The notes under the pieces: model-generated
Databases searched by the model: none
The model's input: only the letters and a program-made list of their open reading frames with translations
Told to the model about the DNA's origin: nothing
Origin: Thermoleophilia bacterium
GTDB lineage: Bacteria > Actinomycetota > Thermoleophilia > RBG-16-64-13
Assembly: GCA_040768135.1 (NCBI GenBank)
Contig: JAXGNF010000007.1
Span: 1-57,746 of the forward strand
Direction of reading: 5' to 3'
Length of the DNA: 57,746 nucleotides
Position numbers and translations under genes: made by a program
Shown here: one piece after another, positions 2,882 through 26,987 of the stretch
Numbering within the stretch: the first letter of the stretch is position 1
How the letters are laid out: each line of letters starts with the position of its first letter

Positions 2882-3466
2882 CTAGGACTGCGAACTCTTG
2901 GCGATAACCTGCTTGCAGACCGTCTTGAGGGTCTCGAATACGCCCACGCCACTTAGAGCGCACGCCTCAACAACAGGTGAGCCTGTGTGATTGAGCAGCT
3001 CGGTGAGATCGCTGACCGAGAAGATCGCGCTGAGATCTCGTTTGTTCATCTGCAGGACCATGCCAAGATTGTTGATGTCTTCACCCTGCTCCATGAGGTT
3101 GTCCCACAGGTTGAGGTAGCTGTCGACGTTCTCGTCGAGCCGCGATATCTGGCTGTCGGCCACGAAGACCACGCCATCGACGCCCTGCAGCACTAGTTTG
3201 CGCGAAGCATTATAGAAGGACTGCCCAGGCACCGTGTATAAATGGAAACGGGTGCGCAGCCCCTTCACCGTGCCGAGTGATAGCGGGAGGAAGTCGAAGT
3301 AGAGGGTCCGCTCTTCTTCCGTCGCGATACTCACCAACCGGCCTCTTGCCCCCGGGTTGACACGGCGGTAGATGTACTGGATGTTCGTAGTCTTGCCGCA
3401 CAGCCCACATCCGTAGTACACGATCTTGTAGTTGATCTCCCGAGCCGACAGATTGATCAGTGCCAC
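2882..3466 (-). CDS. mglA: MglA-family small GTPase (Myxococcus/Thermus type)
   Basis: INLSAREINYKIVYYGxGLCGKTTN, RTLYFDFLPL, LYTVPGQ, DGVVFVADS and NKRD motifs; start reassigned to GTG 3466 with GGGAG RBS. Confidence 0.92.
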   Translation of the reverse strand: MALINLSAREINYKIVYYGCGLCGKTTNIQYIYRRVNPGARGRLVSIATEEERTLYFDFLPLSLGTVKGLRTRFHLYTVPGQSFYNASRKLVLQGVDGVVFVADSQISRLDENVDSYLNLWDNLMEQGEDINNLGMVLQMNKRDLSAIFSVSDLTELLNHTGSPVVEACALSGVGVFETLKTVCKQVIAKSSQS

Positions 3467-3476
3467 TCGTCGCTCC

Positions 3477-3983
3477 CTATAGTTGTCCGTCACCTTCGCC
3501 GGGGAACCAGGAGTCGATGGCCGTCCCCGCCTCACGGGAGTAGTCGTGATCGATGATCCGTTCTCCTCCTGTGGTATCTTCGGCAGCTTCGAAAACCGGC
3601 TTGAGGACCTCGACCGCCCTCCCCGTGTATAGACGCACCCGACCGACCTGCGTATCATGTCCAAAAGTGATAAGGAGGAGAATCTGTTCGGTCACCTGCA
3701 TCACGTGCAGGTTAGATTCCCGGCCTTCGTGGAACAGCAGGCTGAACTCACGTTCTTTGAGAACCTCAGCCAGTTGACGGGTGGCGGCGAAGGAACCTGC
3801 CGCCAGCGCAGCCAGTGACAACGTATCGGCGTCGGCGTGGGGGGGGGAGGTGGTTATCGGTTGCCCGCTGGTTGAGATCAAGGCAACGAACTGAGACGCC
3901 GTAACCCGCCGCAGCTTGTTGAGGACGCCGTCGATCAACTGCATCTGCTCGTCGTTGATGACGAGGCCTCTACGACCAGCCAC
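3477..3983 (-). CDS. mglB: MglB roadblock/LC7 GTPase-activating protein
   Basis: SLAALAAGSFAA, FHEG and GRVRL motifs plus C-terminal helix; directly upstream of mglA; start GTG 3983 with GGAGG RBS. Confidence 0.85.
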   Translation of the reverse strand: MAGRRGLVINDEQMQLIDGVLNKLRRVTASQFVALISTSGQPITTSPPHADADTLSLAALAAGSFAATRQLAEVLKEREFSLLFHEGRESNLHVMQVTEQILLLITFGHDTQVGRVRLYTGRAVEVLKPVFEAAEDTTGGERIIDHDYSREAGTAIDSWFPGEGDGQL

Positions 3984-4133: not shown

Positions 4134-4517
4134 GTGAACCCAAAAAACCTCAAGTACCACCGGGAGCACGACTGGGCCCACATAGCCGGCGATACCGCCG
4201 TTTTCGGTCTCACCAGCTATGCCCAGGAGACGCTTGGCGACATAGTCTTCATCGAACTCCCCGAGGTAGGCAAAGACGTCACTGCGGGGACGCCATATGC
4301 TGAGGTGGAGTCGGTCAAGGCCGTATCTGAGGTATATGCGCCGCTCAGTGGTTCAGTGGTAGAGGTCAACGAAGAGGTCGTCGATGCCCCCGAGACTATC
4401 AACGAGAGTCCGTACGAAGACGGGTGGCTCATTAAGGTCAAGTTGAGCGACCCCGCAGAGATCGATACGCTCATGACAGAAGAGGAATACGCAGAGTTTC
4501 TCGCCGGGCTTGAGTAA
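4134..4517 (+). CDS. gcvH: Glycine cleavage system H protein
   Basis: EVESVKAVSEVYAPLSG lipoyl-Lys motif, PYEDGWLIKV; AAAGGAG RBS. Confidence 0.95.
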   Translation: MNPKNLKYHREHDWAHIAGDTAVFGLTSYAQETLGDIVFIELPEVGKDVTAGTPYAEVESVKAVSEVYAPLSGSVVEVNEEVVDAPETINESPYEDGWLIKVKLSDPAEIDTLMTEEEYAEFLAGLE

Positions 4518-4520
4518 CAC

Positions 4521-4543
4521 GCCTCAGGCACAACCTGAGGTGC
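4521..4543 (+). terminator. Hairpin after gcvH
   Basis: CCTCAGG-cacaa-CCTGAGG stem, no U-tract. Confidence 0.35.
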
Positions 4544-4590
4544 ATTGTCGCACAGACGAGCCGCGGCTCGTCATAGGTCTCTACTGTAGG

Positions 4591-4619
4591 TTGAAGGTTT
4601 TGGGTAGGACCGCTATAGT
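4591..4619 (+). promoter_or_regulatory. Housekeeping-sigma promoter, probably giving a leaderless rsiG transcript
   Basis: TTGAAG-N17-TATAGT; the GTG start at 4626 lies 7 nt after the -10 box with no SD. Confidence 0.65.
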
Positions 4620-4625
4620 GAGAGT

Positions 4626-4916
4626 GTGAACGCCTTGGGTGAGTCTTCATTTGACCGACTGATCAACATTCAGTCGTATAGCGATGACGAGTTGAAGTCG
4701 CTTCATAAGCGCTTGGTTGAGGAAGAGCGTGAGATCTCCATGCGCAGGCGGCTACTGCACGCCGAACTAGACATAATCCGAGCGGAGACGGTCAGACGGC
4801 TGCGCGACAAGAGCAGGGCTGAAGGCGGTCTTGTCCGTGACGGCAATCTGGCCGTTTTGGCGGATATTCTCAGCGGTCGATTGCCCGTCGATGACGATCT
4901 TGAAGTGGGGGGGTGA
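4626..4916 (+). CDS. rsiG: RsiG/AmfC-family anti-sigma factor, single c-di-GMP-binding motif
   Basis: SDDELKSL..EEEREISMRRRLLHAELDIIRAE contains E-x3-S-x2-R-x3-H-x3-D (E34,S38,R41,H45,D49). Confidence 0.75.
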   Translation: MNALGESSFDRLINIQSYSDDELKSLHKRLVEEEREISMRRRLLHAELDIIRAETVRRLRDKSRAEGGLVRDGNLAVLADILSGRLPVDDDLEVGG

Positions 4917-4922
4917 TCTCTC

Positions 4923-5708
4923 GTGCCGGAGGACGTTGAGCCGGTCGTTCGTGGTATTCAGAAGCGCTTCCGTGATCTTTCGGTGGACGTACGCGAAGAG
5001 CGGATCATCCGTTACATCGTCAACCAATTGGGTCAAGGCCGCAAGATAGACGACATAATGGGCGACGCCTACCTCACCGCCCACACCAGTGACGTTTTCC
5101 GGCTCCAAGTGTTGCAGAATCCGGCCGTCATCAGAGCCATCGAAGAAGAACTGCATCGCCAATTTGCTGACTATCAGTCGGCTACCGGCACCGCTGCCGG
5201 CAGCAATCCTCCGCCCGAGCCGGGGGGAAACCCGCAAGACTCGATCGTATGCCCATCTTGTGGGACTTCTAACACCTGCGATTCCAACTTCTGCCGGCGC
5301 TGCGGCAATCGGCTGCCACCCACAGACCCGACTGACGTCACATTGTCGTATTCCCTCGCAGATATGGATACGGGCGCGGGCCTTTTTGCGCCGGGAGCAG
5401 TAAGTGGAACAGTACTTCTGATCCGCGCCGGAGGGGGCCGGGAGGGTGAGGTCGTTAGCCTTGTAGGCGATGTACTTACCGTTGGCCGCAGTCCCCATAG
5501 CGATCTGTTCCTGGACGACGTGACTGTATCGCGTCACCACGCCCGGATCCTGCGAGACGAAGATGAGTTCTTGGTAGAAGATCTGAACAGCCTGAACGGT
5601 ACATACGTGAATCGTAAGCGCATCGAGCGTCACCGTCTCTCTGATGGTGACGAGCTTCAGATCGGTAAATACAAGCTGGCCTTCATCGAGCAGCCAGAGG
5701 AGATCTGA
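4923..5708 (+). CDS. FHA-domain protein (GarA/OdhI-like) with zinc ribbon and an extra N-terminal helical domain
   Basis: CPSC..FCRRC zinc ribbon; VGRSPHSDLFLDDVTVSRHHA and DLNSLNGTYVN FHA motifs. Confidence 0.9.
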   Translation: MPEDVEPVVRGIQKRFRDLSVDVREERIIRYIVNQLGQGRKIDDIMGDAYLTAHTSDVFRLQVLQNPAVIRAIEEELHRQFADYQSATGTAAGSNPPPEPGGNPQDSIVCPSCGTSNTCDSNFCRRCGNRLPPTDPTDVTLSYSLADMDTGAGLFAPGAVSGTVLLIRAGGGREGEVVSLVGDVLTVGRSPHSDLFLDDVTVSRHHARILRDEDEFLVEDLNSLNGTYVNRKRIERHRLSDGDELQIGKYKLAFIEQPEEI

Positions 5709-5721
5709 GCCGGGCCGACCC

Positions 5722-6474
5722 ATGGATGACGCCGCCAAACGTCCCGCCCCAGCCGGCAACCCAACACCCGATCCCGTAGTAGGCGCCGATACCGACCGTC
5801 CCCTCACTATAGGACAGGTGGTCGCCCAACTTCAGACGGAATTTCCCGACCTCAGCATCACCAAGATTCGCTACCTAGAGGATCGACAACTTCTGAATCC
5901 GGCCCGGAGCAAAGGCCGCTACCGGAAGTTCAGTACGGCCGACATCCGGCGGCTCCGGACCATACTCACTCTGCAGCGCGACGAGTATCTACCGCTTGAG
6001 GTGATACGAGAGCGTATCGACAGAGTGGGTGTATCAGGCTTGGGGGAATCTCTGACGTCGGCCGTCGCTCCTCTGCGTTCAAGTGCGGCCCTCAAGAGAG
6101 AGGAGCCAATTTACAGCTGGACAGAACTGTGCCGAGAGTCCGGGGCGGACGACGCGTTTTTACGCCTGCTCGTCGAATTCCGCCTGATTGAGCCTTCCGC
6201 CCAAGGCGGCCAGGTCTTCACTGAGTCCGACGCAGAGATCGCCCGCATCTGTCAAGTTCTCGCCCGATTCGGGGTTGAACCTCGTAATCTGCGCCTCTTG
6301 GCCTCTTCCGTAGAAAGGGAGGCGGCGATCCTACAACAGGTCGTCGCACCTTCATTGCGCTCTGCCCATGTCGACAAAAGAGATTACGGAGAGCAAGTGC
6401 TGGGAGATCTTGGCTCTCTTTACTCTCGTCTCATGCACTTCCTTCTCTATAAGGAACTGCGCAAAGCGCTCTAG
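5722..6474 (+). CDS. MerR-family regulator (Rv1828/FtsR-like)
   Basis: LTIGQVVAQLQTEFPDLSITKIRYLE..YRKFS..LPLEVIRE motif; conserved gcvH-FHA-MerR order; start ATG 5722. Confidence 0.88.
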   Translation: MDDAAKRPAPAGNPTPDPVVGADTDRPLTIGQVVAQLQTEFPDLSITKIRYLEDRQLLNPARSKGRYRKFSTADIRRLRTILTLQRDEYLPLEVIRERIDRVGVSGLGESLTSAVAPLRSSAALKREEPIYSWTELCRESGADDAFLRLLVEFRLIEPSAQGGQVFTESDAEIARICQVLARFGVEPRNLRLLASSVEREAAILQQVVAPSLRSAHVDKRDYGEQVLGDLGSLYSRLMHFLLYKELRKAL

Positions 6475-6663: not shown

Positions 6664-7182
6664 ATGAGACTCGAGGACCATATCCGCCACATCCCCGGCT
6701 TCCCGAAAGAGGGTGTACTCTTTCACGACATCATGCCAATGCTTCAAAAGGCTGAAGCGTTGCGCTACGCCGTGGACTTAATGGCCGACTTCGCTCGCGA
6801 AAGGGAGGTGGATCTTGTCCTAGGGGCCGAGGCGAGAGGGTTCATCCTTGGAGCGGCTCTTGCGTACGCTCTTGGAGTGGGATTCGCTGCTTCCCGCAAG
6901 CCCGGCAAACTGCCTTGGACCGTCCAACGGTGCGAATACGACCTTGAATACGGCACCGACACGCTGGAGATGCACACTGATGCGATCAAGAAAGGCCAGC
7001 GCGTTCTGATTCACGACGACTTACTCGCGACCGGCGGAACCGCTCAGGCAAACGTACGACTCGTCGAGCAGGCTGGTGGAGTCGTAGCTGGCCTGGCTTT
7101 TTTGATCGAATTGAGCGACCTCCATGGGAGGGACAAGCTGGAGGGTTACGACATCCTCAGCCTATTGCGGTATGAGGTCTAA
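6664..7182 (+). CDS. apt: Adenine phosphoribosyltransferase
   Basis: EARGF, RKPGKLP, YDLEYGTDTLE, IHDDLLATGGT. Confidence 0.95.
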   Translation: MRLEDHIRHIPGFPKEGVLFHDIMPMLQKAEALRYAVDLMADFAREREVDLVLGAEARGFILGAALAYALGVGFAASRKPGKLPWTVQRCEYDLEYGTDTLEMHTDAIKKGQRVLIHDDLLATGGTAQANVRLVEQAGGVVAGLAFLIELSDLHGRDKLEGYDILSLLRYEV

Positions 7183-7399: not shown

Positions 7400-8614
7400 C
7401 TATTGCACCAGATTCATCATGTTGAACATCGGCAGGTACATGGCTATCACGACGAGACCCACCAGACCGCCGACGAACAGCATCATTATCGGTTCGATGA
7501 TCGAGGTGAGTGATTTCACTGCTGCGTCGACTTCGTCTTCATAGAAGTCGGCAATCTTCCCGAGCATGGCATCGAGCGCACCCGTCTCTTCACCGATTGA
7601 GATCATGTGAGTCACCATCGGCGGGAATACGGCGACGCGCGAAAGTGGATGCGCGATCGGCTCACCGCTGCGGACGCTTTCTTTCACATCGATCATCGAG
7701 TGTTCGATAACGTAGTTGCCTGAGGTCTTACCGGTGATATCTATAGCCTGAAGGATCGGGACCCCGGAGCTGACTAGGGTCGACAGAGTCCGACTGAACC
7801 GCGCCAGGGCTATCTTCTGAACGACCGGACCAAGCTTCATGGGGAGCTTCAGCTTCACGCGGTCCCAAGCCCGACGACCTTGCTCGGTCTGTTTCAATTT
7901 GTTGAGACCCCACACGAAAAGCCCCAAGAGCGGGAATATGATGAACCAATAGCCCTTAAGGACGTCGCTGACCCCCATCATGAGTTGTGTCAGTCCCGGG
8001 AGTTCCCCGCCCAGCTCGTCGTACATGCCCGCAAAAATCGGGATGATGAACAACAACATGCCTATCATGACCATGATGGCAAAACCGGCGATGAGGACCG
8101 GGTAGGCCATTGCCGACTTGACCGTGCGCCGGAGACTGTCGTCTTTCTCCAGCTGCTCTGCCAACCGGTTGAGAGTCTGGTCGAGCACGCCCCCCGCCTC
8201 GCCGGCACGGACCATGGACACATATAGACGGTCAAAAGCGGCCGGATGGCGCTCCATGGCATCAGAGAGCGGCATACCTGCTTCGACGTCCCCACTTACG
8301 GCAGAAATGATCTTCTTGAACCGAGGGTTCTCCGTTTGCTCTTCAAGGACATAGAGGGCGCGCAGCACCGCCAGACCGGAGTTGATCATGGTCGAGAACT
8401 GACGGGCGAAGATAGCTTTATCGCGTATCTTGATACGTTGGGAGTTCTCGAACGCCTCTTTCAGTCCGATCGTCTTCCGCTTCTCTTCAAGCTTTATGAC
8501 CGTCAGGCCTTTGTGGCGCAGTTGGGCGACCACCGCTGCCTTGTTGTCGGCCATAGCCTCCCCGGTGAACGGGGCGCCTCTCTCCCGCTTCGCGGTGTAT
8601 GTATAGGTCGCCAC
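7400..8614 (-). CDS. pilC: Type IV pilus platform protein PilC (GspF family)
   Basis: FARQFSTMINSG, GEAGGVLD, FSRTLSTLVSSGVPIL, GEETGALD, EPIM; three TM segments. Confidence 0.95.
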   Translation of the reverse strand: MATYTYTAKRERGAPFTGEAMADNKAAVVAQLRHKGLTVIKLEEKRKTIGLKEAFENSQRIKIRDKAIFARQFSTMINSGLAVLRALYVLEEQTENPRFKKIISAVSGDVEAGMPLSDAMERHPAAFDRLYVSMVRAGEAGGVLDQTLNRLAEQLEKDDSLRRTVKSAMAYPVLIAGFAIMVMIGMLLFIIPIFAGMYDELGGELPGLTQLMMGVSDVLKGYWFIIFPLLGLFVWGLNKLKQTEQGRRAWDRVKLKLPMKLGPVVQKIALARFSRTLSTLVSSGVPILQAIDITGKTSGNYVIEHSMIDVKESVRSGEPIAHPLSRVAVFPPMVTHMISIGEETGALDAMLGKIADFYEDEVDAAVKSLTSIIEPIMMLFVGGLVGLVVIAMYLPMFNMMNLVQ

Positions 8615-8665
8615 TCCTCTTACTCCTCTTTCACGCTCCGTGGAGCAGTTTGCCTCTAATCGATG

Positions 8666-8693
8666 CTATCGACCGCAAGGGGCCAAGACTCAA
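8666..8693 (-). promoter_or_regulatory. Putative sigma28/WhiG-type promoter for pilC
   Basis: TTGAG-N15-GTCGATAG. Confidence 0.4.
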
Positions 8694-8735: not shown

Positions 8736-9800
8736 TCACGCGGCTCCCATTAGCAGCAATCGCTCCAGCTCTTCAGGCACCGATGAGCGCCGAATAGCCA
8801 GCTCTCTCGTGATCTGCCCACGGCGAACCAGGTCCGCCAGACAGGAGTTCATCGTTTGCATTCCATGTTGCGTGCCTGTCTGCATGACCGTATAAAGCTG
8901 ATGAGTTTTGCCCTCCCGGATGAGATTGCGGGCCGCCGGTGTACAGACGAGTACTTCGCACGCTACGGACCGGCCCTTGCCGCTGGCCTTCGGTAGAAGC
9001 TGCTGTGTCACTATCCCTTCGAGGGTAGCGGCAATCTGCACACGGATCTGCTCTTGTTGGTGGGGTGGAAAAACATCGATCATCCGGTCGATGGTCTGGG
9101 GACAGTCCTGGGTGTGAAGGGTCGCAAACACCAAATGACCGGTTTCCGCAGCAGTCAGAGCTATCTGGATGGTCTCCAAATCGCGCATCTCGCCGATGAG
9201 TATTATGTCGGGATCCTGACGCAGAGCGGACCGGAGGGCGATCGGGAATGCCTTCGTGTCGCTACCCACTTCTCTCTGCTTGACGATGCACCGTTTGTGA
9301 CGGTGGAGGAACTCGATGGGATCTTCGATGGTCACGATGTGATCGGCCCGGGTCTGGTTAATCTCGTCGATCATGGCGGCAAGGGTCGTGGACTTGCCCG
9401 AGCCGGTCGGTCCGGTCACTAGAACAAAGCCTCGCGGCCTCTTGCTGAACGTGTGCAACACCTTGGGCAAGCCAAGATCCTCGATGCTCTTGATGGCAGT
9501 GGGGATCAGTCGAAAGGCGGCGCTGAGAGTACCTCTCTGGAAGCAGGCGTTTATACGGAAGCGGGCCATGCCGTAGAGTGCGTATGAGAAATCGACCTCC
9601 CACTCGGTCTCAAGCTTCTGGCGCTGATCCTGGGTAAGGATGCTGTAGATTAGCTCCCGCGTTTCGTTGGCATTCAGGTCGGGGTAATCCAACTTCACGA
9701 GATGTCCGTCGATGCGGACCATCGGAGGTATCCCAACCGAAAGGTGCAGGTCCGAAGCGTCTCTGTCGATCACTTCTTTGAGAATCTCGCCTATGTCCAC
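8736..9800 (-). CDS. pilT: Type IV pilus retraction ATPase
   Basis: GPTGSGKST, TIEDPIE, ALRQDPD, GEMRD, TGHLV..TLH, AARNLIRE. Confidence 0.95.
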   Translation of the reverse strand: MDIGEILKEVIDRDASDLHLSVGIPPMVRIDGHLVKLDYPDLNANETRELIYSILTQDQRQKLETEWEVDFSYALYGMARFRINACFQRGTLSAAFRLIPTAIKSIEDLGLPKVLHTFSKRPRGFVLVTGPTGSGKSTTLAAMIDEINQTRADHIVTIEDPIEFLHRHKRCIVKQREVGSDTKAFPIALRSALRQDPDIILIGEMRDLETIQIALTAAETGHLVFATLHTQDCPQTIDRMIDVFPPHQQEQIRVQIAATLEGIVTQQLLPKASGKGRSVACEVLVCTPAARNLIREGKTHQLYTVMQTGTQHGMQTMNSCLADLVRRGQITRELAIRRSSVPEELERLLLMGAA

Positions 9801-16769: not shown

Positions 16770-17615
16770 TCAGACCTCACCTCTCCCCCCGGCCGCTTCA
16801 GCCAGGGCCTCGTCTTCCGCCATGTACTGGCGCAGGTTCTCGATCGACTTTCTAATCAGACGCGACACATGCATCTGAGATATCCCAACCCGAGCGGCTA
16901 CCTGTGTCTGTGTCATGCCCTCAAAAAAGCGCAGATGCAAGATCAGACGTTCCCTGGGTTCGAGACGAGCCATAGCGGGCGCCAAGACCCGGCGCTGCTC
17001 GAACACCTCGTACGCCTCTTCTTCGGTCCCCAGGTAGTCGAGCAGTTCGAGCGATTCGTCATCTTCGGCCGATCCCCCTGAGAAGATCGAGATCGAACTA
17101 TAGGCCCGGCCACTCTCCAGCGCTTCGACCACCTCTTCCTCGCTCACTTCGGCGGCCGCCGCCAGCTCAGCAATGGTCGGCGAGCGTCGCAACTCTACCG
17201 TGAGTTGCTCGATGACCCGGTTCAAGCGGACGTTCAAGTCCTGCAGGGCCCGCGGGACCTTCACAGCCCAACCCTTGTCGCGGAAATACCGTTTTATCTC
17301 CCCCATGATGGTCGGGGTGGCGTACGTGGAAAGCTCGACCCCCCGCTCGAGATCGAATCGATCGATGGCCTTGATCAGCCCGATAGACCCTACCTGGATA
17401 AGGTCTTCGACCGGTTGCCCCCGTGATGCGAACCGCCTAGCCAGGCTCTTCACGAGAGGCAGGTACCGGGTGATGAGCTCCTCACGTGCGGTCAGATCTT
17501 GATGTTCTTTGAGACGCAGCAGAAGCTCACGTTCAGACAATAGCTCCAGGGGCCCAGACCAGGTGCTACCCTCCGGCGAACGCTCGACCTCTTTGCCTTT
17601 CTCCGGTTTCGACAC
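16770..17615 (-). CDS. SigB/SigF/SigG-family RNA polymerase sigma factor
   Basis: DLIQVGSIGLIKAIDRFD, YATPTIMGEIKRYFRD, ISQMHVSRL. Confidence 0.93.
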   Translation of the reverse strand: MSKPEKGKEVERSPEGSTWSGPLELLSERELLLRLKEHQDLTAREELITRYLPLVKSLARRFASRGQPVEDLIQVGSIGLIKAIDRFDLERGVELSTYATPTIMGEIKRYFRDKGWAVKVPRALQDLNVRLNRVIEQLTVELRRSPTIAELAAAAEVSEEEVVEALESGRAYSSISIFSGGSAEDDESLELLDYLGTEEEAYEVFEQRRVLAPAMARLEPRERLILHLRFFEGMTQTQVAARVGISQMHVSRLIRKSIENLRQYMAEDEALAEAAGGRGEV

Positions 17616-18086
17616 TTAGGATGCCTGCTTCTCCATCTCGACCGCGAATGAAGCAGGGCCGCTCTCAATCACCTCGTAGCTTTCTACCAGCGAACTGACA
17701 AGTAGGCGTACATCGAGTCGACATTCCTCACAAGGCCGGAAGGGGTCAACCGCCAGAAGAGCGGCCTTCACACTCTGATTGCCCAACCCGCCCAACCTGA
17801 CCCGGAATCCGCCACCCACGCGATAGACGTCGAGAACCAGTTCCGGACCCACCTCCGCCTCTTCGGCCAGCAGTGACTCCACCGCGAGCAACAGATCGTC
17901 CAGACGGTCAAGGGGGAGGTCATTGCGGGAAGCCATACCACTCATGAGTACGCGCATCACGGGCAGTGCGGAATCACTCCGCGCGATGCGAAGCGTCACG
18001 ATGTCGTCAGGCTCTCCCATCGGACCGGCGGCCTCCATAGCTGGGGACTCGAAGGGCTTGGGCTTACGAGCCGAGTTCTTCGTCAA
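17616..18086 (-). CDS. RsbW/UsfX-like anti-sigma factor with degenerate kinase motifs
   Basis: VMRVLMSGMA..DLPLDRLDDLLLAV pattern, directly upstream of the sigma gene; N-box Asn absent. Confidence 0.7.
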   Translation of the reverse strand: MTKNSARKPKPFESPAMEAAGPMGEPDDIVTLRIARSDSALPVMRVLMSGMASRNDLPLDRLDDLLLAVESLLAEEAEVGPELVLDVYRVGGGFRVRLGGLGNQSVKAALLAVDPFRPCEECRLDVRLLVSSLVESYEVIESGPASFAVEMEKQAS

Positions 18087-18309
18087 TCTCCTGCTGTTTC
18101 TCCTGGTACATCTCCCGCCCGTGCTCGACGGCCTCCGCCGCTCGGTTCTTGAGGTCGGCGAAGATGCGCTGAGCCTCAGCGGGAACGTCAGAGAACGCCT
18201 CTTGCAGCGGCTTGCCGGTCTCTTGTGCTATGCGATAGGCGATAAGGACCGCCCCTCCAATTGCTGCTCCGGCGGCCAGAACGATCAATGACCGAAACGT
18301 GCCCATCAT
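18064..18309 (-). CDS. YtxH-like small membrane protein
   Basis: LAAGAAIGGAVL TM segment followed by amphipathic helix; paired with DUF948. Confidence 0.55.
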   Translation of the reverse strand: MMGTFRSLIVLAAGAAIGGAVLIAYRIAQETGKPLQEAFSDVPAEAQRIFADLKNRAAEAVEHGREMYQEKQQEIDEELGS

Positions 18310-24577: not shown

Positions 24578-24729
24578 GACGGCAATCGAAGCGACGTGAC
24601 CCTCGGCGACGACGTGCAGTACGTTAGGACCCTGGGGGGCGAGGCTCAGTGCGATGGGGCCCTTCGGGGGACGAAGGTCAATGCGGTGGGACCCCGAGGG
24701 ATGAGGCTCAGTGCGGCGTGACCCGATAA
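24578..24729. repeat. Five degenerate tandem units of about 30-31 bp starting in the last rel codons
   Basis: Recurring GAC/GAGGCTCAGTGCG..GGG(A/G)CCC registers at 24578, 24608, 24639, 24670, 24700. Confidence 0.7.
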
Positions 24730-26987
24730 GCGTCGTATACCGTATCGATCCGTCGGATTCTCTGCAGCACGGTTTCCAGGTAGTCGATCTCAGGCACGTC
24801 AAACACGAAACGGTCCTTGACCATGTTGTTGCGGGCCGTCGTGATCTGCGCCGCGATAATACTTATGCCGCTTTCGCTGAGGGTGCGGGAGATGTCCTCC
24901 AAGAGGTGGTTGCGGTCGTAAGCTTCGACTTGTACCTCCACCCGCAGAGGCGTCTTGACCTTGGTATCCCATTCCACCCGGGCGAATCGTTCGGGGTTCT
25001 TTTCGAGAGCCCTCACGTTGGGGCAATCGCGGCGATGGATCGTGATGCCACGCCCGAGCGATATGTAGCCGACGACATCGTCACCCGGTACCGGACGACA
25101 ACACTGGGGCAGGCGGACGGCCACATCTTCGATCCCGTCGACCCGGATTCCCAACTGGTGAGCCGAAGGCATGCCCTTAGCCGGCCCTTTGGTCAAGGAG
25201 CCGGGAACCGAAAGGGCCGCAACCTCCCCCTCGCTCTTTAGACTATGGATGACCCGTTGGACAATGTGGTGCGCGCTCAGCTTGCCCGAACCCAAGGCGA
25301 TGAAGAAATCCTCTTTCTTGGGATAGTTGACCTCCTTCATCACCTCGCTCAGAATATCTGAGTTGATCAGACGCTGAGCAGGTAGCCCCTGTTTGCGCAA
25401 GGCCTCCAAGAGCGCTTCCCGGCCCAGATGCTCGGAGTCCTCGCGTCGTTCGCGGTTGAACCACTGCCGGATCTTGTTGCGGGCGCCCGAACTGGCCACG
25501 AACTGCAGCCAATCGCGCGAGGGTCCATGCCCGGTCTTAGAAGTGAGGATCTCTACGATGTCTCCGGACTGCAACTTGTATGTGAGCGGCACGATATGCC
25601 CATCGACCTTGGCCCCCACACAGTTGTGACCGACATCGGTGTGGATGGCGTAAGCGAAATCCACAGGAGTAGAACCGGCGGGCAGGCTCTTGACCTCTCC
25701 CTTCGGTGTGAAAACGTATACCTCGTCTCGGAGAAGATCGATGTGCAGCGACTCCATGAACTCGCTCGGGTCCTTAGTCTCCGACTGCCAATCCATGATT
25801 TGCCGCAACCAATGCAGCTTCTCCATGTGAGCGTCGCCACGCTGAGACACGCGTCCGCCCTTTTTGTACATCCAGTGGGCGGCAATGCCGTACTGGGCGG
25901 TCTCGTGCATCTCTCTCGTGCGGATCTGGATTTCGAGCGGCTTGCCCTGTGGGCCCATGACCGTGGTATGCAGCGACTGGTACATGTTGAACTTGGGCAT
26001 AGCTATGTAATCTTTGAAGCGGCCCGGGACGGGTTTCCAAAGTGAATGGATGACTCCCAGGGACGCATAGCAATCCTTCACCGAATCGACAAGCACCCGC
26101 AGGGCGATTAGATCGTAGATCTCGTTGAACTCCTTACCCCGCCGGACCATCTTCGTGTAGATCGAGTAGAAGTGTTTGGCCCGCCCTACAATCTCGCCCT
26201 CGATACCGACCTCGGCCAACTCCTCGGCAAGGATGGCCCTGGCCTCTTCCATGTCTCGCTCACGATCGGCCCTGCGTTGAGAGACCATGTGCTGGATCTC
26301 CGCATACTTGCGGGGATGAAGGGTCGCGAACGCAAGGTCCTCGAGTTCCCAGCGGATTGACTCGATGCCGAGTCGGTGGGCCAGAGGCGCGTAGACCTCC
26401 AGGGTCTCTTTAGCCTTCTGGATCTGCTTCTCTTTGCCCAAATAGCTGAGGGTGCGCATGTTGTGGAGTCGATCGGCCAACTTGATCAAGATCACCCGGA
26501 TGTCCTTGGCCATAGCCACAATCATCTTGCGGATGTTCTCGGCCTGCTCCTCCTCCACCGTGCTGAAACTCATCTGGGTCAGCTTCGTCACGCCGTCTAC
26601 CAACAGGGCCACCTCGTCGCCGAAGCGTTCACGCACCGTCTCGATGGACATCCCCGTGTCTTCGACCACGTCGTGCAGCAATGCGGCCGCAAGGGTGGCA
26701 TTGTCCAATCCCAAATCGGCGCAGATGGAGGCCGTCCCAACCGGGTGGTTGATGTACGCCTCACCGCTGGCCCTCAGTTGAGAACCGTGCTGGACGGCCG
26801 CCACCTCGAATGCCTGGGTCACAAGCTCCCGATCGAAAGTGGGGTTGTACTCTTCGATCTTGGCGATGAGGGCTCGCAGCAGATGCTGGTAGCTTTCGCC
26901 GGCGTCCTTCGAACCAGACTCAGTCCCGCAACTGCGGGGCACCTCAGGTTGAGTGGTTTTCACAGGGTCAGACAAAACCTTGAACAC
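24708..26987 (-). CDS. rel: Bifunctional (p)ppGpp synthase/hydrolase Rel
   Basis: HD motif LHDVVED, KLADRLHN, YQSLHT, EIQIRT, TGS and ACT domains; the start may be GTG 26963 (overlapping the recJ stop). Confidence 0.97.
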   Translation of the reverse strand: MFKVLSDPVKTTQPEVPRSCGTESGSKDAGESYQHLLRALIAKIEEYNPTFDRELVTQAFEVAAVQHGSQLRASGEAYINHPVGTASICADLGLDNATLAAALLHDVVEDTGMSIETVRERFGDEVALLVDGVTKLTQMSFSTVEEEQAENIRKMIVAMAKDIRVILIKLADRLHNMRTLSYLGKEKQIQKAKETLEVYAPLAHRLGIESIRWELEDLAFATLHPRKYAEIQHMVSQRRADRERDMEEARAILAEELAEVGIEGEIVGRAKHFYSIYTKMVRRGKEFNEIYDLIALRVLVDSVKDCYASLGVIHSLWKPVPGRFKDYIAMPKFNMYQSLHTTVMGPQGKPLEIQIRTREMHETAQYGIAAHWMYKKGGRVSQRGDAHMEKLHWLRQIMDWQSETKDPSEFMESLHIDLLRDEVYVFTPKGEVKSLPAGSTPVDFAYAIHTDVGHNCVGAKVDGHIVPLTYKLQSGDIVEILTSKTGHGPSRDWLQFVASSGARNKIRQWFNRERREDSEHLGREALLEALRKQGLPAQRLINSDILSEVMKEVNYPKKEDFFIALGSGKLSAHHIVQRVIHSLKSEGEVAALSVPGSLTKGPAKGMPSAHQLGIRVDGIEDVAVRLPQCCRPVPGDDVVGYISLGRGITIHRRDCPNVRALEKNPERFARVEWDTKVKTPLRVEVQVEAYDRNHLLEDISRTLSESGISIIAAQITTARNNMVKDRFVFDVPEIDYLETVLQRIRRIDTVYDAYRVTPH

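Follow-up and report, generated by a model that had tools for sequence, protein, structure and literature searches.

A single-motif, His-type RsiG orthologue predicted to lead a conserved gene cluster with an FHA protein and FtsR in a Thermoleophilia bacterium

Analysis of a 57,746-nt stretch of DNA from a Thermoleophilia bacterium (hereafter the window) identified an open reading frame at positions 4626..4916 of the forward strand which is, as judged from its sequence, a bona fide single-motif, His-type orthologue of RsiG, a predicted c-di-GMP-dependent anti-sigma factor. The gene begins with GTG and its 96-residue product is MNALGESSFDRLINIQSYSDDELKSLHKRLVEEEREISMRRRLLHAELDIIRAETVRRLRDKSRAEGGLVRDGNLAVLADILSGRLPVDDDLEVGG. 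The arrangement of the locus suggests that rsiG is the first gene of a conserved operon, followed by the genes for a zinc-ribbon FHA protein and for the MerR-family regulator FtsR. We consider it likely that this RsiG orthologue forms a homodimer which, together with a c-di-GMP dimer, sequesters a WhiG-type sigma factor, and that rsiG heads the rsiG/FHA/ftsR operon. Dimerization, c-di-GMP binding, WhiG as the partner and the functional meaning of the operon partnership are features that we infer by analogy.

The product of rsiG matches the Pfam RsiG family PF22802 ("RsiG-like") at 47 bits, where the gathering threshold is 27 (E 2e-12), and none of the NCBIfam models match it. A sequence search of the PDB gave four matches below E 0.001, led by the RsiG of Rubrobacter radiotolerans, RsiG(Rr) (7LQ2, 7LQ3 and 7LQ4; E from 2.5e-7 for 7LQ2_B to 7e-7), with RsiG/AmfC of Streptomyces (6PFJ, E 4e-5) as the next match. 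In the core, 23 of 45 residues are identical to RsiG(Rr). The predicted c-di-GMP-binding motif, E34-x3-S38-x2-R41-x3-H45-x3-D49, occupies codons 34 to 49 (4725..4772) with its residues spaced at i, i+4, i+7, i+11 and i+15, and it aligns to E59/S63/R66/Q70/D74 of RsiG(Rr), with which that protein grips its c-di-GMP dimer in the crystal (PMC8325347). The preliminary description of this DNA had called a 96-residue, single-motif RsiG with the motif at these nucleotides and had proposed an RsiG HMM search as a check; the coordinates are exact, and the call is confirmed by PF22802, by the RsiG(Rr) match, by conservation of the motif and by a neighbourhood common to the Rubrobacter-type RsiGs.

An AlphaFold2 model of the single chain, made with a 65-sequence alignment, has one long predicted helix of 46 residues (residues 20-65, 4683..4820; block pLDDT 90-98) that contains the motif and corresponds to the coiled-coil helix of RsiG. 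It is followed by a short C-terminal helix (residues 72-83, 4839..4874) overlapping a conserved block, D74/L78/I81/L82, whose columns are nearly invariant in our alignment of the family (A1); by analogy with RsiG(Rr), this helix is a candidate sigma-contact region. A Foldseek search of the PDB with the single-chain model gave no meaningful match, because the model is essentially one long helix. Orthology is indicated by RsiG(Rr) being the top PDB match, together with the gene order common to the Gln-containing, Rubrobacter-type RsiGs, and the single-motif subtype by the small size of the protein, its one motif and its nearest genome loci, which belong to Thermoleophilia-type metagenome-assembled genomes (MAGs). 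Single-motif RsiGs, the His variant included, were already described and solved structurally in 2021.

On the forward strand, rsiG is preceded by gcvH (4134..4517; PF01597, 155 bits; TIGR00527) and followed by the FHA gene (4923..5708), by ftsR (5722..6474) and by apt, for adenine phosphoribosyltransferase (6664..7182; annotated with PF00156), which usually comes next after ftsR as the fourth gene. Flanking this group on the reverse strand are genes for an MglA-like small GTPase (2882-3466) and an MglB/roadblock GAP-like protein (3477-3983; NF052242, 67 bits, below the cut-off) upstream of gcvH-rsiG, and pilC (7400-8614), pilT (8736-9800) and pilB (9856-about 11580) downstream of apt. A scan of genomes, one per species, found 542 relatives of the RsiG locus. 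The best 80 of the 542, which were kept, all come from Thermoleophilia-type MAGs (Solirubrobacterales, Thermoleophilaceae and unclassified Actinomycetota). In 78 of these best 80 loci, tblastn with the window proteins placed an FHA gene and then ftsR directly 3′ of rsiG, and in the remaining two the contig stops right after RsiG. The apt gene follows ftsR in most loci. The gcvH gene is upstream of rsiG in L005-L011 and went undetected in the other 73 of the best 80; mglB/mglA upstream and pilC/pilT/pilB downstream are likewise confined to this nearest clade (L005-L011), of which L005-L010 keep the whole mgl-gcvH-rsiG...apt-pil arrangement. The preliminary description had rightly named gcvH, an FHA protein and a MerR-family gene (PF01597, PF00498 and NF050798, respectively) as the neighbours of rsiG, but had taken rsiG to be inserted among them. 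The counts do not support an insertion, since rsiG-FHA-ftsR is the constant part; if anything, gcvH is the variable element of the neighbourhood.

The conserved order extends beyond the Thermoleophilia type. A Rubrobacter-type query against metagenome contigs recovered 11 loci, 10 of which match the RsiG(Rr) core by tblastn. These 10 encode Gln-type RsiGs that are 47-76% identical to that core (nine of them at 53-76%), and every contig of sufficient length (L085, L086, L088, L090, L091, L092 and L094) has the order NTP-transferase, RsiG, FHA, FtsR, Apt, which these relatives of RsiG(Rr) share with the window; two shorter contigs reach into the FHA gene. A mannose-1-phosphate guanylyltransferase/phosphomannomutase-like gene is found upstream of rsiG, as it is in the Rubrobacter-type contigs. 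In the window clade, unlike the Rubrobacter type, mglBA and gcvH separate the NTP-transferase gene from rsiG. In other lineages, the genes for the twin-motif proteins P0192 and P0153 lie directly ahead of an FHA gene and an Rv1828-type FtsR gene, and are themselves preceded by a CDP-alcohol phosphatidyltransferase gene. At a Streptomyces-type twin-motif locus (L100), where the alpha-1 helix is 90% identical to that of RsiG of Streptomyces venezuelae, RsiG(Sv), genes for FHA, FtsR and Apt are all absent from the surrounding ±6 kb. Because the order is kept across Thermoleophilia-type, Rubrobacter-type and two twin-motif lineages, rsiG-FHA-ftsR appears to be old and widely kept; these comparisons indicate that it is ancient in the basal lineages and was lost in the Streptomyces type.

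Within this distribution, the window RsiG is 41-50% identical to its Solirubrobacterales and Thermoleophilaceae homologues and belongs to a separate digester/sludge clade, in keeping with the anaerobic-digester and sludge metagenomes in which the organism is found. A second NCBI contig (L001, JAXGHH010000011.1) encodes an identical RsiG and differs from the window in that frameshift-like breaks scatter its NTP-transferase and FtsR genes over different frames, FtsR being called there as 93 residues. Both genes are intact in the window and in the Logan contigs L002 and L003.

We then considered the two downstream partners. The third gene encodes FtsR, as indicated both by an equivalog-level match (NF050798, 201.6 bits against a cut-off of 150, with PF28507, Rv1828_C) and by its position directly after the FHA gene. 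To our knowledge, no transcriptional activator of ftsZ other than FtsR has been described in Actinobacteria. The FHA protein has 261 residues, with a CxxC...CxxC zinc ribbon at C110-C127 (5250-5303), a Thr/Ser linker motif, DVTLSY (5334-5351), and then the FHA domain at residues 171-257 (PF00498, 81 bits). Among 88 partner FHA genes, 87 encode the zinc ribbon at the start of the protein, and 82 have a Thr-rich motif (TTMTY, TTATY or STVSY) no more than 40 residues past it, which resembles the ETTS phospho-acceptor logic of GarA/OdhI. The order of FHA gene and ftsR is also that of the GarA/OdhI-FtsR module (Rv1827-Rv1828 in Mycobacterium, cg1630-cg1631 in Corynebacterium). In M. tuberculosis, this module too has a gcvH gene upstream, which we take to be Rv1826. 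The window locus differs from the module in that rsiG precedes the pair and apt stands in place of a nuclease gene and a second MerR gene, and the window FHA protein differs from GarA/OdhI in its zinc ribbon and an extra N-terminal region of ~100 residues. In Actinobacteria, the position of the FHA gene (odhI) directly before ftsR is always conserved, and the region upstream of odhI "varies" (PMC6683498).

The preliminary description had called the FHA gene garA. Its FHA domain and its position before ftsR are in line with that name; equivalence is ruled out by a score of 104 bits against the cut-off of 200 for the OdhI equivalog (NF041660) and by the linker, which has T-(T/S)-x-x-Y in place of the N-terminal ETTS. 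From its sequence, the protein is GarA-like in logic and in position before ftsR and is not a plain GarA. Its first ~100 residues (4923-5230), fused ahead of the zinc ribbon in the window clade only, have no relative in Pfam or the PDB. At one locus of this clade (L009), the region seems to occupy a separate frame or ORF (8295-8672), and it could have been a separate small gene that was later fused to the zinc-ribbon FHA gene.

[quoted passage not shown] Glu and Ser would contact the riboses, Arg and Asp would read the guanines and His would stack on a base. The loaded dimer would then sequester a sigma-28 factor of the WhiG type, whose gene would lie at another place in the genome, and release this factor when c-di-GMP falls, with the rsiG operon driven by its own housekeeping-type promoter and probably transcribed as a leaderless mRNA. 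RsiG(Rr) itself (RradSPS_1442) is likewise small and bears its single motif on one long helix; it has 118 residues and Gln70, as against 96 residues, a shorter N-terminus and His45 in the window protein. The RsiG/AmfC of S. venezuelae (6PFJ, 6PFV) belongs to the same Pfam family and has the same motif, and each of its halves can be aligned with the window RsiG, which has one motif and His where the Streptomyces protein, of ~176 residues, is a twin-motif monomer with Gln.

The window was searched for the sigma factor that this mechanism calls for. No WhiG gene is present in its 57.7 kb, where the sole sigma factor (16770-17615, reverse strand) belongs to the SigB/SigF/SigG family (TIGR02980, 298 bits). 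This protein was rejected as WhiG, since it scores as SigB/F/G-type (125 bits for FliA_WhiG against a cut-off of 190) and carries Arg in place of the Gly61 of WhiG, a site at which every side chain would reportedly collide with c-di-GMP (PMC12871210). A sigma factor encoded between apt and pilC in L009 was likewise set aside as SigB/F/G-like. When residues 30-275 of Streptomyces WhiG were compared by tblastn with 1.3 Mb of loci, including ±6-8 kb around ~95 homologues, the SigF-like gene of the window was the only match. As published surveys report a WhiG homologue, of the WhiG2 clade, wherever RsiG occurs (PMC12871210), we expect WhiG elsewhere in the genome.

WhiG-type promoters gave a similar picture within the window. 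There is no exact TAAA-N14-17-GCCGATAA site, and allowing up to three mismatches gave 19 sites with an N15 spacer and 22 with N16, where 17.3 and 18.8 were expected; matches are thus at chance level, the pilB/T/C surroundings included. The ACCGATAA sites before mglB and pilT were rejected as WhiG promoters, as they come without a proper −35 hexamer or spacing. Type IV pilus genes reportedly make up the WhiG/RsiG regulon in Rubrobacter. In the window such genes lie 2.5 kb away from rsiG, but no WhiG gene or WhiG promoters were seen there. Two small ORFs without an assigned family precede the SigB/F/G-type factor on the reverse strand (17616-18086, with a weak RsbA-like match at E 0.005, and 18064-18309), and these may be its anti-sigma/antagonist pair. 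Other large ORFs of the window are housekeeping genes (relA/spoT, recJ, aspS, hisS, tgt, queA, ruvAB, fusA, recG and rib genes), and none of the window ORFs scanned has a GGDEF or EAL domain. The relA/spoT gene (24708-26987, reverse strand), ~20 kb from rsiG, encodes a full-length homologue with HD, RelA_SpoT, TGS and ACT domains, which puts (p)ppGpp metabolism at that distance from the predicted c-di-GMP receptor gene.

These searches bear on the question of what RsiG binds. The protein might be an RsiG-fold c-di-GMP receptor whose main target is not WhiG and is instead an operon partner, namely the FtsR/ftsZ circuit or the GarA-like FHA switch, or another sigma factor. The strict adjacency of rsiG, FHA gene and ftsR in the Thermoleophilia-type, Rubrobacter-type and two twin-motif lineages would fit such a role, as would the lack of a WhiG gene linked to rsiG in the 1.3 Mb searched and the report that the stimulus controlling FtsR is unknown (PMC6683498). 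Two database entries can also be read as RsiG-FHA run-through proteins: P0160 (284 aa) has RsiG first, then an Arg/Pro-rich stretch and then FHA, and P0179 (111 aa) has an FHA-like fragment ahead of RsiG. The Arg/Pro-rich middles of such apparent fusions resemble frameshift artefacts, however, and both entries probably stem from gene calls that cross the rsiG-FHA junction through a frameshift or a wrong start or, conceivably, are genuine RsiG-FHA fusions. Gene adjacency alone does not show a physical interaction, and Rubrobacter RsiG, with close relatives in the same gene order, was crystallized with WhiG and c-di-GMP (PMC8325347). Moreover, RsiG offers no conserved Thr to an FHA domain that is specific for phospho-Thr. 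Taken together, we regard a main target other than WhiG as unlikely.

FHA domains read phospho-Thr, and among 277 RsiG motif copies no Thr is conserved, which makes RsiG an unlikely phospho-Thr ligand of the FHA domain. At its best candidate phospho position, which resembles a helix N-cap (S-D-x-E-L), 191 of the 277 copies have Ser and 41 have Thr. By analogy with GarA, kinase input more likely acts on the linker of the FHA protein itself.

We also considered the family at large and the residue that differs from Gln in the window motif. Searches gave 150 close homologues, nearly all of 90-125 residues, and all 120 of the close homologues listed carry PF22802; at 50% identity and E ≤ 0.001 the family has 472 clusters. 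Searches with PDB fragments of RsiG(Rr) and RsiG(Sv) returned short proteins only. Of 268 homologues retrieved, 265 have the motif, far more than chance would give, and 27 have it twice. E, S, R and D never vary in the 277 motif copies recovered with their flanking residues, whose Gln/His position is His in 258 and Gln in 17. Given this proportion, His is the normal state of the branch. The preliminary description had pointed out His in place of Gln; His45 is indeed present, and it is no peculiarity. The RsiG of Conexibacter woesei (Cwoe_3492) and other published Thermoleophilia RsiGs have, by their published description, the same His variant as the window, and the C. woesei protein binds a c-di-GMP probe with a Kd of 25 µM (PMC8325347). 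[quoted passage not shown]

It could still be argued that the window gene encodes a small coiled-coil protein which is RsiG-like in sequence and has lost c-di-GMP binding, serving for instance as a structural or adaptor component of the FHA/FtsR module. His does stand for the Gln of the Streptomyces and Rubrobacter motifs, and residue 46 is Ala where 246 of the 277 motif copies have Gly. Yet 25 further members of the family share this Ala, c-di-GMP binding by the His variant has been demonstrated in Conexibacter, and all five motif positions are under strong conservation. Loss of binding is therefore very improbable in our judgement.

Twin-motif relatives also occur next to the FHA gene. RsiG-like proteins of this form are encoded ahead of FHA-FtsR at L097 6001-7658 (171 aa) and L099 2031-3808 (185 aa), with His in three of their four motif copies. 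In other twin-motif relatives (for example P0121), each half includes the C-terminal 'D-V-x-x-L-T-x-I-L' block, suggesting tandem duplication of the whole unit, and this duplication was possibly independent of the one in Streptomyces.

Returning to an RsiG that would act on WhiG from the head of its own operon, a consensus scan found a sigma-70-like promoter, TTGAAG-N17-TATAGT, at 4591..4619 on the forward strand, its −10 hexamer ending 6 nt before the GTG at 4626. Both hexamers are kept in eight loci (the window and seven related ones) and the spacer is not, and in most of these eight aligned loci a GTG or ATG start lies 6-7 nt past the −10 hexamer. With so short a distance, the rsiG mRNA is probably leaderless or near-leaderless, and a conserved promoter placed for a leaderless start would account for the missing Shine-Dalgarno sequence. 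Two repeats lie between gcvH and the promoter: an inverted repeat at 4522-4540 (CCTCAGG-cacaa-CCTGAGG) and a perfect 18-nt palindrome at 4555-4572 (GACGAGCCGCGGCTCGTC). Neither is followed by a T-run or kept in the related loci of the promoter alignment, and one RNA contig (4536-4711) passes through the second.

The gaps between the genes are short, with 6 nt between rsiG and the FHA gene and 13 nt between the FHA gene and ftsR. RNA evidence comes from contigs assembled from eight metatranscriptome runs, which are of low depth and may include DNA carry-over. Three contigs cover parts of rsiG (4616-4772, 4536-4711 and 4655-4805). The rsiG/FHA junction (4916/4923) is spanned by one contig, 4900-5050, and the FHA/ftsR junction (5708/5722) by contigs (5428-5758) in seven runs; given the depth and possible carry-over, this junction coverage is supportive and not proof. 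With the 6-nt gap, the conserved promoter and the junction contig in hand, co-transcription of rsiG with the FHA gene, as the preliminary description had assumed, is plausible. The idea that ORF 4626-4916 is a chance or mis-called ORF, which its short length and its GTG start without a Shine-Dalgarno might invite, is refuted by hundreds of same-length homologues in conserved synteny, by the PF22802 score above the Pfam threshold and by the RNA contigs over the ORF, the promoter placement having accounted for the missing Shine-Dalgarno sequence.

One feature of the RNA stands apart. In runs X26, X27, X33 and X34, a discrete contig of ~320 nt (~5428-5758) begins where the FHA domain does and extends ~35 nt into ftsR; its word depth is 18-29x, as against 2-4x for the rest of the operon. 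The piece recurs at low depth in X25 and X28. An internal ftsR transcript or a stable RNA could account for it, as could the piling up of FHA-domain words that related strains have in common.

What the three genes do together is a separate question from the identity of RsiG. In Streptomyces, RsiG-WhiG gates sporulation septation. We speculate, with considerable reserve and rating it as a possibility on the doubtful side, that rsiG / zinc-ribbon FHA / ftsR is the ancestral home of RsiG, in which c-di-GMP and Ser/Thr-kinase signalling converge on FtsR, ftsZ and cell division. Such convergence could run through direct contacts among the three products or through obligatory co-expression, and the operon would then be an early form of the Streptomyces RsiG-WhiG circuit, from before rsiG left the operon. 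The conserved operon suggests a link between c-di-GMP signalling and the GarA/FtsR module; it hints at that link and does not show it. The intersection of kinase and c-di-GMP signalling raised in the preliminary description would likewise be a hypothesis. In the searchable literature we found no paper with both RsiG and FtsR or with both RsiG and "forkhead-associated", the matches for RsiG with FHA being unrelated engineering papers, and FHA goes unmentioned in the 2021 RsiG paper (PMC8325347) and in a 2026 preprint.

The identification of the gene is in itself ordinary, and what is added here is its setting. All the basal lineages sampled have rsiG at the head of a unit that also comprises a zinc-ribbon FHA gene and ftsR, a linkage that goes unmentioned in the searchable papers on RsiG, WhiG or FtsR. 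Should the linkage reflect co-expression only, the window would hold one more RsiG orthologue. If it is functional, it would provide a testable route by which c-di-GMP reaches cell division in non-sporulating Actinobacteria, as well as an evolutionary rationale for the control of septation by RsiG-WhiG in Streptomyces.
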